DNA of 64,000 nucleotides from positions 36,632 to 100,631 of the forward strand of contig CAZWMT010000015.1 of the NCBI GenBank assembly GCA_964635055.1, read 5' to 3'. Source of the stretch: an uncultured Microthrixaceae bacterium (lineage in GTDB: Bacteria > Actinomycetota > Acidimicrobiia > Acidimicrobiales > DATDAH01). The notes beneath the pieces were generated by a model. That model did not search any database, was not told the DNA's origin, and was given only the letters and a program-made list of their open reading frames with translations. Within the stretch, counting starts at the first letter, position 1. Every line of letters begins with the position of its first letter. This document shows, in pieces, positions 27-53,153 of the stretch. Position numbers and translations under genes: made by a program.

Positions 27-1199
27 ATGACCGACCCGACCCGGTTCCCGCGTGGCGAGGTGGCCATCGTCGGCATCGGGTGCACTGAGTTCTCCAAGGA
101 CTCGGGGGTGGGGGTGTTCACCCTTGCCGCCGAGGCGGTGACCGCCGCCGTGGCCGACGCCGGCCTGTCCGTCGACGACGTGGACGGCCTCTGCACCTAC
201 GGCGTGAACGACTCGATCCCGCCCAACGTCCTGGCCCAGTCGCTCGGCATCCAGAGCCTGAGCTTCTACGTCGACCAGTTCTACGGCGGCAGCGTCTCGC
301 TCACGATGCTGGGGCAGGCCACGCTGGCGCTGGCCGCCGGCGTCGCCGACTGCGTCGTCGTGTACCGCGCCCTCAACGGCCGCTCGGGCGCCCGGCTGAA
401 CGGCTCGGGCGGCGGCGGCCGCCTGCCGTGGGACATGCAGTTCAAGGTCTCCGCCGGCCTCCTGGCCCCGTCCCAGGAGATCGCCCTCGCGGCCAAGGCG
501 CACATGTTGAAGTTCGGCACCACCAGCGAGGACTTCGGTCGCATCGCAGTGCTCAGCCGTACCAACGCCCTGGACAACGACCGGGCCATGATGCGCAAGC
601 CGATGACCCTCGAGGACCACCAGGCCAGCCGCTGGATCGTGGAGCCGTTCCACATGTTCGACTGCTGCCTCGAGACCGACGGTGCCGTCGCGGTCGTGCT
701 CACCCGGGCTGACCGGGCGAAGGCCCTGCCGCACCGCCCGGTGCTGGTGCAGGGCGCCGCATGGGGCGGCGGCATCACCGTGGTCAACAACGGCCATGAC
801 GACATCACTCGCTCACCGGCCGAGCCCATCGCCGAGCGGGTCTACGCGACGGCCGGGCTCAGGCCGACGGACATCGACTTCGCCGAGTTGTACGACTGCT
901 TCACCTACAACGTGCTCTCGCAGATCGAGGGGTACGGCTTCGCCGAGCCGGGCGGCGTGCCCGGCATGCTCGCCGACGGCGCCTTCGACCGTGCCGGGGG
1001 GTCGTTGCCCCTGAACACCCACGGAGGGCTGCTGTCGGAGGGCTACATCCACGGCATGAACCACGTGTACGAGGCGGTGGAGCAGATCCGGGGCGACGCG
1101 GGGTCGCGTCAGGTCGAGCGCCACGACACGGCGTTGGTCACGGGCCAGCTCGGGTACGTCAGCGGGTACTCCTCGGCTGCGGTCCTGGTGGGGGCGTGA
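27..1199 (+). CDS. Thiolase-like protein, SCP-x / lipid-transfer (Ltp) type
   Basis: 390 aa ORF. The C-terminal NTHGGLLSEGYIHGMNHVYEAVEQIRGDAG is typical of non-condensing SCP-x type thiolases. It is followed by an overlapping DUF35 partner gene. Confidence 0.85.
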   Translation: MTDPTRFPRGEVAIVGIGCTEFSKDSGVGVFTLAAEAVTAAVADAGLSVDDVDGLCTYGVNDSIPPNVLAQSLGIQSLSFYVDQFYGGSVSLTMLGQATLALAAGVADCVVVYRALNGRSGARLNGSGGGGRLPWDMQFKVSAGLLAPSQEIALAAKAHMLKFGTTSEDFGRIAVLSRTNALDNDRAMMRKPMTLEDHQASRWIVEPFHMFDCCLETDGAVAVVLTRADRAKALPHRPVLVQGAAWGGGITVVNNGHDDITRSPAEPIAERVYATAGLRPTDIDFAELYDCFTYNVLSQIEGYGFAEPGGVPGMLADGAFDRAGGSLPLNTHGGLLSEGYIHGMNHVYEAVEQIRGDAGSRQVERHDTALVTGQLGYVSGYSSAAVLVGA

Positions 1200-1642
1200 T
1201 GGCGGGCCCGCTGGAGGTCGGGATGCGCACGGTCCCTGTCCCGGACCGCGACTCGGCTCCGTACTGGGCGGCGCTCGCCGATGGCCGGTTCACGATCCAG
1301 CACTGCACGGACTGCGGGCACTGGACCTGGCCGGCCCGTCCACTCTGCTCCGGCTGTCACGGCGGGAACCTCCAGTGGGAGGACTCGGCGGGGACGGGAA
1401 CGGTCTACAGCTGGGTGGTCACGCACCAGGCCTATGCGCCCGAGCTGGTCGACCTGGTGCCGTACACGATCGCCCTGGTGCGCCTCGACGAGCAGGACGA
1501 CGTCCTCGTCCCCGGTCGGCTGGTCTCCGACGGCGCGGTCCACCAGGGCCTGCGGGTGCGGGCGCAGCCCGAGCGGATCAACGACGATGTCGGCGTGCTC
1601 CTCTGGGCGGTCGACGAGCAAGGGGAGGGGGCGCGCTCGTGA
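1196..1642 (+). CDS. DUF35 OB-fold / zinc-ribbon protein (thiolase partner)
   Basis: Zn-ribbon CTDCGHWTWPARPLCSGCHG followed by an OB-fold-like region. The start (GTG 1196 or ATG 1199) overlaps the stop of the thiolase gene. Confidence 0.85.
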   Translation: MMAGPLEVGMRTVPVPDRDSAPYWAALADGRFTIQHCTDCGHWTWPARPLCSGCHGGNLQWEDSAGTGTVYSWVVTHQAYAPELVDLVPYTIALVRLDEQDDVLVPGRLVSDGAVHQGLRVRAQPERINDDVGVLLWAVDEQGEGARS

Positions 1643-52425: not shown

Positions 52426-53153
52426 CCCCCGGGCTCGAGTGCAAGGGCCTGACGGGTGGGTGGGGACAGCTGACGGCGTTCCGGGACCTCGACCTCTCCG
52501 TAGAGGCCGGCTCGATGCATGCGATCCTCGGCCCGAACGGCGCCGGGAAGACCACTCTGCTCCTGACCCTTGCCGGGCTGCTGCCGGCACACGCCGGCAC
52601 CGTCTCCGTGGGTGGCCAGGAGATCCGACCGGGGCGTCCGACGGCTGCCTGCCGGGCAGGGCTTGTGCTCGTTCCTGACAACCGCCAGCTCTTCACCACC
52701 CTCACGGTGGAGGAGAACCTCCGCGTGCCCAATCGAAAGGGCCGCGAGGGGATCGACGCCATGTACAAGCTGTTCCCGTCCCTCGAGGACCGGCGCAACC
52801 TGCGCGCCGGAGCGCTCTCGGGCGGCGAGCAGCAGATGCTGGCGATGGCCCGGGCGATGATCCAGCGACCCAAGGTCCTGCTCGTCGACGAGCTCAGCAT
52901 GGGTCTCGCCCCGACGGTCGTGGAGCGGCTCTTCGCCGCGGTGCGCCAAGCGGCGACGAACCGTGGCTGCGCCGTCGTCTTCGTCGAGCAGTACGTCAGC
53001 GTGGCCCTGCACGTGGCCGATCACGCATGGGTGCTCAATCGGGGGAGCATGGTGCTCGACGGCTCGGCGGACGAGCTACTCGCAGACGCCGACGTGCTCG
53101 AGGAGGCGTACTTCGGGTCGACCAAGGACCCCAGCAGCGCCGACGTCCATTGA
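52422..53153 (+). CDS. ABC transporter ATP-binding protein, LivF-like
   Basis: GTGA overlap. GPNGAGKTTLL, LSGGEQQMLAMARA, LLVDELSMGLAP. Confidence 0.9.
   Translation: MTPGLECKGLTGGWGQLTAFRDLDLSVEAGSMHAILGPNGAGKTTLLLTLAGLLPAHAGTVSVGGQEIRPGRPTAACRAGLVLVPDNRQLFTTLTVEENLRVPNRKGREGIDAMYKLFPSLEDRRNLRAGALSGGEQQMLAMARAMIQRPKVLLVDELSMGLAPTVVERLFAAVRQAATNRGCAVVFVEQYVSVALHVADHAWVLNRGSMVLDGSADELLADADVLEEAYFGSTKDPSSADVH

Follow-up and report, generated by a model that had tools for sequence, protein, structure and literature searches.

Several described systems resemble parts of the locus analyzed here, a 64,000 nt stretch of contig CAZWMT010000015.1 (termed the window) from an uncultured Microthrixaceae bacterium, which carries a large block of genes for coenzyme A (CoA)-thioester catabolism. 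The steroid C3-removal module comprises the acyl-CoA dehydrogenase (ACAD) ChsE4-ChsE5, the hydratase ChsH1-ChsH2 and the aldolase Ltp2, which is bound to the DUF35 domain of ChsH2. The dit cluster of Pseudomonas abietaniphila and Paraburkholderia xenovorans contributes the hydroxylase DitZ, and amidohydrolase-related dinuclear oxygenases (AROs) are represented by AibH1H2-AibG-AibF, SfbO and PtmU3. Benzylsuccinate β-oxidation (BbsEF, BbsG, BbsH, BbsCD, BbsAB), the methylcitrate cycle and the leucine pathway supply further points of comparison. To our knowledge, little has been established on how soil bacteria degrade ring systems with quaternary carbons (resin, other terpenoid and naphthenic acids) after the first steps, and this holds even for the proteobacterial dit pathway past ring C.

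We conclude that the block, with about 50 genes, forms a single conserved regulon in an Acidimicrobiales bacterium, and consider it somewhat probable that it serves to take up an alicyclic acid bearing tertiary or quaternary carbons and to oxidise it as CoA esters. If so, a defined operator and regulator in an abundant uncultured soil lineage make the regulon a testable candidate for such catabolism. An initial annotation made without database searches had described a CoA-thioester catabolic supercluster with steroid-side-chain-like parts, and this interpretation is partly supported. The supercluster stands, and a branched or alicyclic carboxylate other than a steroid is still the best reading of the substrate. 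The likeness to steroid genes holds at the level of subfamilies and catalytic residues and fails at the level of orthology, with no NCBIfam steroid equivalog cutoff reached.

A codon-usage gene caller found 56 genes in the window (g1 to g56; plus strand unless marked −), to which a second gene for an LLM (luciferase-like) oxidoreductase is added (39392..40264, −; Bac_luciferase 8e-51; F420-type, TIGR03619, 226.8 vs cutoff 166.9). Proteins were annotated with Pfam and NCBIfam models, and chosen ones by sequence searches of the PDB or by an AlphaFold model and Foldseek. Sequence to the left of the window was read from Logan contigs, so that about 73 kb were seen in all. Gene calling and Pfam returned everything the initial annotation had listed at the positions it gave, the second LLM included: two thiolase/DUF35 units (g1 with g2, and the fused g31), an ACAD pair with an ATGA overlap (g8/g9), a double hot-dog protein (g10), short-chain dehydrogenases/reductases (SDRs) at 13331, 44071 and 47277 (PRK07791 the best model for 3/3), a crotonase (g15), a ligase (g17), a P450 with its heme motif (g43), three PF04909 proteins (g14, g32, g35), three TauD proteins with the HxD motif (g5, g20, g42), three family-III CoA-transferase genes, two of them doubled (g7, g11, g18), two PrpD proteins and one LeuC/LeuD-like pair. 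That list had left out the Mo-hydroxylase FAD subunit g3, the dienelactone hydrolase g12, two SnoaL_4 proteins, a DUF2889 protein, g39, g40 and the Liv-type importer g45-47.

An operator shared across the block

A 20 bp palindrome, nGTGACAGT-N4-ACTGTCACn, occurs at 11 sites between 3.6 and 48.3 kb, none of which lies in coding DNA. Specifically, a search for AGTGACA-N6-TGTCACT that allowed up to 3 mismatches found 7 sites, compared with 1.27 expected from shuffles of the whole window and 0.07 from shuffled intergenic DNA (maximum 2 in 500 shuffles). A position weight matrix built from those 7 sites adds 4 more, and 11/11 fall inside the 5.9% of the region that is non-coding. The strongest site is the perfect palindrome AGTGACAGTCGAGTGTCACT (25824..25843; 32.1 bits) in the promoter of the TetR gene g24 (25117..25731, −; TetR_N and TetR_C_14), facing the core operon; it is kept in orthologous loci, and a weak second site (25778..25797; 11.8 bits) shares the g24/g25 promoter. 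Sites also occupy the promoters of g5/g6 (3631..3650; 21.5 bits), g7/g8 (6712..6731; 26.5 bits; kept upstream of g8 orthologs), g13/g14 (14341..14360, 29.9 bits, with a second at 14387..14406, 18.1 bits), g20/g21 (22811..22830; 26.8 bits) and the P450 gene g43/g44 (47181..47200; 17.8 bits). The remainder are directly upstream of g23 (25029..25048; 24.3 bits) and of the Rieske gene g39 (42762..42781; 30.2 bits; kept upstream of Rieske orthologs), and upstream of the ABC importer gene g45 (48276..48295; 19.0 bits). No site is present in the window to the right of 48.3 kb, and four further sites are found on the Logan contigs to its left.

In six Acidimicrobiia loci with a g24 ortholog (L013, L014, L015, L018, L023, L027), the operator stands at the corresponding promoters, and it precedes g8 orthologs in eight soil contigs. 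It was not found in the Mycobacterium, Streptomyces and Rhodococcus loci, all of which are without a g24 ortholog. Because the strongest site lies in its own promoter and the motif occurs only in loci with a g24 ortholog, we infer that g24 binds the palindrome. From the left edge to the ABC importer, essentially every promoter region has the palindrome, which recurs at the same promoters in g24-bearing relatives; this makes the genes one regulon rather than scattered paralogs. The initial annotation would have been overturned had these genes proved to be scattered β-oxidation paralogs without co-regulation, or had the cluster not been conserved as a unit; the shared operator and the synteny in related genomes speak against this. 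It had also drawn the cluster too short on the left, where the regulon runs past the window edge. With the 9 kb or more that lie beyond this edge, the regulon covers a minimum of about 62 kb.

To assess synteny, every protein of the window was compared by tblastn with the fetched loci. Identical copies of the proteins are confined to one NCBI metagenome contig and to Logan assemblies from a small number of sequencing runs. The closest genomes come from uncultured Microthrixaceae (g31 87% identity) and from metagenome-assembled genomes (MAGs) of Acidimicrobiaceae. The order g17-g18|TetR|g26-g27-g28-g29-g30-g31-g32-g33-(g34)-g35|g36-SDR|g39-g40|g12-g13 recurs in several Acidimicrobiia MAGs, and many soil contigs repeat the left module g7|g8-g9-g10-g11-(g14)-g15-g16-g17-g18. 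Among these contigs, L041 is collinear with the window over g1-g18 and L061 connects the left module with the TetR gene. Homologs of g10 and g31 appear to share contigs in at least six assemblies, to judge by longest contigs of equal length. The dioxygenase, amidohydrolase, PrpD and aconitase-type genes had initially been set apart as foreign to the pathway; instead, they follow the shared operators, and the most conserved operon includes those for the PF04909, PrpD and aconitase proteins. Furthermore, the cultured Mycobacterium sp. BK086 (L017, NZ_SNWL01000010.1) carries the core operon g26-g34 together with g7, g13 and g18 at 58-74% protein identity. A more distant PF04909 gene takes the place of g35 there, and the locus is without the TetR gene and without the operator. 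This copy suggests transfer between classes, and it offers an experimental host for the core operon.

The window also contains blocks that compact relatives do not have (g19-g23, the second LLM and g41-g44). The regulon seems to have grown by accretion, since the larger extra blocks each carry their own operator and the second LLM gene forms the end of the g38-g36 operon, which the 42762 operator precedes. The g35 orthologs terminate in ...MGGNLAQILRVAA, in place of which the window copy (39377-39485) has a 35-aa tail rich in Arg, Ser and Trp. This tail and the convergent gene for the second LLM share 94 nt. Insertion of the LLM gene seems to have rewritten the end of g35, because these relatives are without it.

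Probable PF04909 oxygenases and the core operon

Three proteins of the regulon that carry the ‘amidohydrolase-2’ label, g14 (14432..15775), g32 (35145..36416) and g35 (38223..39485), have the paired motifs D-x-H and D-x-P-H-x-[D/E] (3/3; DTH/DYPHFE, DDH/DYPHSD and DNH/DYPHPE, respectively) as defined for AROs (PMC13154177; PMC7782822). The trailing acidic residue reportedly indicates a binuclear site (PMC7782822). The best PDB match of g32 is DitZ (8uyr, 9.4e-136, 46.8% identity over the full length), followed by PtmU3 and then by AibH- and SfbO-type proteins. The other two are closest to PtmU3, to which g14 is 33% identical. The literature describes DitZ as a diiron hydroxylase of diterpenoids (PMC13154177) and PtmU3 as a β-hydroxylase of CoA-bound diterpenoids (PMC7782822). 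Thus, the three proteins are probably dinuclear oxygenases and likely the key oxygenases of the regulon. With these DitZ/PtmU3-kind signatures the ‘amidohydrolase’ label is functionally misleading, and in catabolic clusters many genes annotated as ‘amidohydrolase 2’ probably encode C-H-activating oxygenases.

AROs first came to light because small Rieske ferredoxins were associated with them (PMC10811679). The regulon includes such a protein, g39 (42783..43100; 105 aa; Pfam Rieske), with the C-x-H...C-x-x-H pattern (CPH...CANH). It is ATGA-coupled to g40 (43097..44002), a Suc_Fer-like [2Fe-2S] protein with CTHGTRDSCCG and HTGGH motifs, and the pair is syntenic in relatives. We propose g39 as electron donor to the AROs; g40 presumably resembles the bis-His [2Fe-2S] proteins Apd1/Aim32. 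The likeness to described AROs thus extends over the PF04909 fold, the ligand motifs and the presence of a small Rieske ferredoxin in the vicinity. A dehydrogenase like 3-hydroxyisobutyrate dehydrogenase (g34, 37235..38134) adjoins the oxygenase, a trait shared with the aib cluster, and PtmU3 offers a parallel in that it works on CoA-bound diterpenoids. In contrast to those systems, three ARO genes share one regulon here (five PF04909 genes including two upstream), no AibF-type reductase was seen, the partner of the Rieske protein is a Suc_Fer-like protein, and the oxygenases are coupled to thiolase-fold genes.

The two upstream PF04909 genes belong to an operon that crosses the left edge of the window (PF04909, PF04909, a SnoaL-like gene, then g1-g2-g3-g4). 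They adjoin each other on a Logan contig (L084 6621-9052) and have incomplete metal-ligand motifs (DFPHSS; HFPYED), for which reason they were rejected as AROs. The pair recalls the pairing of catalytic AibH2 with non-catalytic AibH1.

The most conserved pair in the core operon is g31-g32, which is ATGA-coupled in the window and remains adjacent in all core loci. The product of g31 (33505..35148) is a DUF35 domain fused to a thiolase fold. In Streptomyces, Rhodococcus and Nocardioides, the gene directly upstream of the g31 homolog encodes a P450, and in Mycobacterium loci a P450 gene lies within about 4 kb. The thiolase cysteines are missing, the Tyr of Ltp2 and Sal is Phe in the window protein (FDGF; among 120 homologs, 97 have YDGF and 14 FDGF), and the position of Ltp2 Tyr344 is an invariant Arg (Arg499) within GGQLSHGRTHGM. 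The protein is therefore without every known catalytic residue, and it was rejected as an Ltp2/Sal aldolase, which calls for a Tyr base and a Tyr or Cys acid. Our guess is that g31 could be the C-C-cleaving partner of g32. The large family of DUF35-thiolase fusions exposed in this way has an active site that fits no known type of thiolase or aldolase.

The remainder of the core operon includes two MmgE/PrpD family proteins, g26 (27052..28437) and g29 (30357..31739), neither of which matched an NCBIfam model. The PDB search, made with g26, gave IRG1-like proteins, cis-aconitate decarboxylase and IDS epimerase as best matches. Between them lie a large subunit of the aconitase/isopropylmalate-isomerase type (g27, 28577..29812; passes NF001614, 432.6 vs cutoff 385) and a LeuD/DmdB-type small subunit (g28, 29812..30360; TIGR02087, 110.4 vs cutoff 108.95); these are broad subfamily models, and the LeuCD equivalogs are not passed. 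An Amidohydro_3 (D-aminoacylase-like) hydrolase (g30, 31739..33403) and an SDR (g33, 36448..37230) complete the set. Enzymes with PrpD and LeuCD folds move a tertiary hydroxyl by dehydration and rehydration. The methylcitrate cycle and the leucine pathway likewise use PrpD-family proteins and a LeuC/LeuD-type heterodimer; unlike the methylcitrate cycle, this locus has no PrpC or PrpB. 2-Isopropylmalate is reported as a degradation product of dehydroabietate (PMC6891630), and 5-hydroxy-dehydroabietate is formed by P. abietaniphila (PMC13063091); by analogy, these metabolites may be taken as leads from the LeuCD-like pair to resin acids. A literature search for the combination of PrpD, LeuCD, DUF35 and amidohydrolase proteins found nothing.

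The operon is headed by g25 (26041..26853; ORF, or open reading frame, open from 25486), an HTH (helix-turn-helix)-like protein with weak HTH matches only. By eye its N-terminal part is ParB/StrR-like (DGAHR), and a tandem LADGK/LADGK/LADGT/LADE repeat is seen near 26500-26560. A homolog in the same position was seen only in L027 (54%).

Putative side-chain-removal module, candidate pathway and alternatives

At the left end of the window, g1 (27..1199) encodes an Ltp2-type thiolase-fold aldolase whose closest solved relative is TcLtp2 (6ok1_A, 1.4e-86, 45.7% identity). The nucleophilic Cys is missing (YGGSV where SCP2-thiolase has NNCS), and the equivalents of Tyr294 (LYDCFT, a YDCF motif) and Tyr344 (EGYIHGM) are kept. 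Roles for both residues are described in Ltp2, where Tyr294 lies in YDHF (PMC12329534); the third motif residue of g1 is Cys, as in Sal/SLP, rather than His (PMC12329534). With 377.4 bits, g1 falls below the cutoff of 469 for the curated Ltp2 family model NF005892. Its C4 zinc-ribbon DUF35 partner is supplied by g2 (1199..1642; Pfam zf-ChsH2 and OB_ChsH2_C, zinc ribbon plus OB fold; CxxC-x10-CxxC), a separate protein and not the C-terminus of a hydratase. The ACAD genes g8 (6744..7937) and g9 (7934..9076) are coupled by an ATGA overlap at 7934-7937 and match different chains of a steroid ACAD. The alpha-like subunit g8 matches Tcur3483 (1.6e-54) and ChsE4 (4x28_A, 3.6e-52), with the next, generic ACAD twenty orders of magnitude worse (1e-32). 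The beta-like subunit g9 matches Tcur3481 (2.4e-28), has IpdE2 as its best NCBIfam model, below cutoff, and is missing the Pfam middle-domain match.

By sequence, g10 (9123..10349; 408 aa; FAS1_DH_region) gave noise only against the PDB, with no match to ChsH1/ChsH2. Its AlphaFold model (pLDDT 78, pTM 0.82) matches MaoC-like, mesaconyl-CoA and itaconyl-CoA hydratases in Foldseek, and on this model g10 is predicted to be a fused double hot-dog (R)-hydratase. By analogy, g1-g2 and g8-g10 would work like the triad of dehydrogenase, hydratase and retro-aldolase by which a tertiary ring carbon is freed of its side chain. The parallel to the steroid C3-removal module consists of a coupled ACAD pair matching both α2β2 chains, a hot-dog hydratase, a Cys-less aldolase with Tyr residues and a C4 zinc-ribbon DUF35 partner. 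The differences are identities of at most about 46%, below NCBIfam cutoffs; a hydratase that is one fused chain without a DUF35 domain, which is separate; a YDCF motif of the Sal/SLP kind with an Ltp2-type second Tyr in g1; and the missing KstR control and ring genes. We do not file the module as a steroid pathway because no member passes an equivalog cutoff, and for the same reason no gene is named after a steroid or dit gene.

These features are consistent with a pathway in which a carboxylic acid would be imported by a Liv-type ABC system, comprising a solute-binding protein (SBP; g45, 48388..49668; Peripla_BP_6), a fused protein of 880 aa with two branched-chain-type permease domains and an ABC ATPase (g46, 49783..52425) and a further ABC ATPase (g47, 52422..53153). 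CoA thioesters would be formed by the acyl-CoA ligase g17 (17864..19450; AMP-binding; NCBIfam matches all below cutoff) and by family-III CoA-transferases. The latter are the doubled g7 (4135..6639, −; two CoA_transf_3 stretches; best NCBIfam model succinate-glutarate CoA-transferase, below cutoff), the doubled g11 (10346..12562), which has Asn in its C-terminal and Glu in its N-terminal half at the position of the catalytic Asp, and g18 (19477..20691), in which the GYD Asp is present.

A skeleton with rings and tertiary or quaternary carbons would be impassable for ordinary β-oxidation. The AROs g14, g32 and g35, probably fed by g39 and g40, could hydroxylate C-H bonds in it, joined by the P450 g43 (45917..47125, −; heme motif FGFGPHFCLG intact) and by three TauD-family dioxygenases with HxD motifs: the Fe/2OG (2-oxoglutarate) enzyme g5 (2702..3583, −; Pfam 2.5e-43), g20 (21876..22757, −) and g42 (45051..45920, −). 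At a tertiary β-carbon, the ACAD pair g8/g9, hydratase g10 and aldolase g1 with DUF35 protein g2 would carry out dehydrogenation, hydration and retro-aldol cleavage, as when the final fragment of a steroid side chain is removed. New alcohols and aldehydes may be oxidised by the SDRs, g34 and a three-subunit Mo-hydroxylase, of which g3 (1639..2511; FAD_binding_5 and CO_deh_flav_C) is the FAD subunit. Two PrpD proteins and the LeuCD-like pair could turn tertiary hydroxy-polycarboxylates into oxidisable secondary alcohols, and g31-g32 would provide hydroxylation followed by C-C cleavage.

Several points weigh against this reading. Binding of the operator by g24 is drawn from position and co-occurrence, no protein tested in the window reaches an NCBIfam equivalog cutoff, and no ferredoxin reductase gene is present in the window. 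The role assigned to g31 is a guess because the protein is without the Tyr, Cys or His of all characterised relatives, and that of the PrpD and LeuCD proteins is argued from chemistry and not from homology to a characterised pathway. In addition, Acidimicrobiales proteins in other loci are 55-57% identical to RrDitZ, as compared with 47% for g32, and DitA- and DitC-type genes are absent from the window.

Within the overall model, an alicyclic terpenoid-type acid is our best estimate of the substrate, although we would put this a little short of an even chance. Diterpenoid or other alicyclic terpenoid acids, resin-acid-like, are the candidate class with the best evidence. A broader and more tentative possibility, which we hold to be rather doubtful, is that the regulon represents an undescribed aerobic strategy for mineralising alicyclic acids with quaternary carbons (resin, other terpenoid, naphthenic or carboxyl-rich alicyclic molecule (CRAM)-like acids). 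In such a strategy AROs would set a β-hydroxyl where an ACAD cannot act, Cys-less thiolase-fold proteins would cut C-C bonds, and the PrpD and LeuCD proteins would finish the branched polycarboxylates; the g31 family would then be a third, new catalytic architecture built on His/Arg/His.

The regulon might instead degrade side chains of steroids or bile acids, possibly along with late ring fragments, with opening of the sterane rings encoded elsewhere, an explanation we regard as unlikely. The best characterised relatives are indeed steroid proteins for g1 (TcLtp2), g8/g9 (Tcur3483/Tcur3481 and ChsE4; IpdE2 for g9), g15 (EchA19) and g17 (FadD3 and CasG); the Rv3520c-type LLM g19 is just under its cutoff, and the top match of P450 g43 is a reconstructed CYP125 ancestor (6e-61). 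However, every such match is below the equivalog cutoff, and extant CYP125 (~1e-42) matches g43 no better than do unrelated P450s such as EryK and MycG. As the initial annotation had noted, ring-cleavage genes and the KstR operator are missing. The KstR operator TnnAACnnGTTnnA has 0 matches in the window, and the KstR2 motif AnCAAGnnCTTGnT has only two 1-mismatch matches, both inside coding DNA; another operator controls everything. Pfam domains of steroid nucleus degradation (KshA, KstD, HsaA-D and IpdAB types) are absent from the window and from 10 kb upstream, Ring_hydroxyl_A, FAD_binding_2 (KstD), extradiol and MCP-hydrolase domains are absent from the window, and no KshA, KstD, HsaA-D or Ipd gene is found in the ~73 kb seen. 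Furthermore, the importer is a Liv-type SBP system and not Mce4, and AROs, PrpD, LeuCD, TauD, family-III transferases and Mo-hydroxylase lie outside known steroid pathways.

To a similar degree improbable is that the block encodes the lower pathway of abietane resin-acid (dehydroabietate) catabolism, as the actinobacterial counterpart of the proteobacterial dit cluster. In P. abietaniphila, an ‘amidohydrolase’ ORF4 lies near ACAD, CoA ligase, P450, SCP-x-like DitF and TetR DitK genes (PMC10710418 Table S11), and the locus shares with the dit clusters a DitZ-like hydroxylase, a P450, a CoA ligase, an ACAD, an SCP-x-like protein, SDRs and a TetR regulator. 2-Isopropylmalate and 5-hydroxy-dehydroabietate are known metabolites. 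Homologs closer to DitZ (57% to RrDitZ) are found in Acidimicrobiales MAGs (L030/L031) next to the alpha subunit of a Rieske ring-hydroxylating oxygenase, a glyoxalase-fold protein, P450s and SDRs; these loci could be the upper resin-acid pathway in the same order. These same closer homologs led us to reject g32 as a DitZ orthologue: it is a DitZ-like ARO of a paralogous branch, at 47%. No DitA1A2A3 or DitC gene is present in the window, phylum, operator and gene order differ from the dit clusters, and the remaining genes have no particular tie to abietanes. The DitZ locus of Rhodococcus zopfii is a small ligase/ECH/TetR/ferredoxin cluster, unlike this block.

Less probable again is β-oxidation of substituted dicarboxylates (alkyl- or aryl-succinate, itaconate or mesaconate types) in the manner of the Bbs pathway, which overlaps our preferred reading of alicyclic acid oxidation because dicarboxylates may be ring-opening intermediates. 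Six to seven oxygenases would be superfluous for such substrates, and g1 is without the thiolase cysteines that BbsB needs. The likenesses, all weak and below cutoff, are several: the best solved relative of g11 is a benzylsuccinate CoA-transferase subunit (4e-26), the transferases score best against NCBIfam models for succinate-glutarate and mesaconate transferases, the PimC large subunit is the model nearest to g8 and g16, the g10 model is like mesaconyl-CoA and itaconyl-CoA hydratases, and PrpD and LeuCD work on di- and tricarboxylates. The Bbs system shares a two-subunit-type family-III CoA-transferase (fused here), an ACAD, a hydratase, SDRs and a DUF35 protein paired with a thiolase-fold protein. 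In contrast to Bbs, the context here is aerobic and oxygenase-rich, and the thiolase-fold proteins are without catalytic cysteines. Finally, a chance neighbourhood of catabolic or housekeeping β-oxidation paralogs, or a tailoring cluster of terpenoid biosynthesis, would fit the paralog-rich content and the PtmU3-type AROs, P450s and 2OG dioxygenases that also occur in platensimycin biosynthesis, but is made very improbable by an operator common to promoters at 11 sites, by synteny and operator kept across genomes, by an SBP-dependent importer inside the regulon and by the absence from the window of terpene synthase, polyketide synthase and nonribosomal peptide synthetase genes.

Remaining genes and borders

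The SDRs g13 (13331..14290, −), g41 (44071..45018; the start at 44071 is correct) and g44 (47277..48206) have PRK07791, which we take to cover Hsd4A, as their best NCBIfam model at 209, 154 and 204 bits, respectively, against a cutoff of 373. Further SDRs are g22 (23312..24181), g23 (24210..25028, −) and g37 (40868..41680, −). The left module also contains the crotonase g15 (15844..16623; ECH_1; best NCBIfam model EchA19, 176 vs cutoff 400) and the ACAD g16 (16620..17867; best model pimC_large, below cutoff). It is followed by the F420-type LLM oxidoreductase g19 (20762..21841; TIGR03559, Rv3520c type, 320.8 vs cutoff 335). A dienelactone-hydrolase family protein is encoded by g12 (12585..13292, −; Pfam DLH 2e-49; 3f67 2.8e-48). 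SnoaL_4 proteins are encoded by g21 (22874..23308; NTF2-fold) and g36 (40267..40851, −), and a DUF2889 protein by g38 (41677..42273, −). Near the left edge, g4 (2504..2683) is a 59-aa ORF with no family match that is also called as a gene in the Logan contigs, and g6 (3686..4153) is a small cupin-like protein with a weak match. To the left of the window, Logan contigs add the large and FeS subunits of the Mo-hydroxylase (partners of g3), an SDR, a second P450 and a crotonase.

The G+C content of the window is 71%, with dips to 0.67-0.69 near the right border of the block (53527-59294), and scans of the window for tRNAs and Rfam families found none. The border stretch carries a transposase HTH fragment (g48), a DUF3800 protein (g49) and an rve_3 integrase (g50), along with three ORFs that have no Pfam match (g51-53). 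Beyond it, at 59520-64000, where no operator sites of the regulon are present, lie a second TetR gene (g54), a second Liv-type binding protein (g55) and a fused permease/ATPase (g56) with the same architecture as g46.

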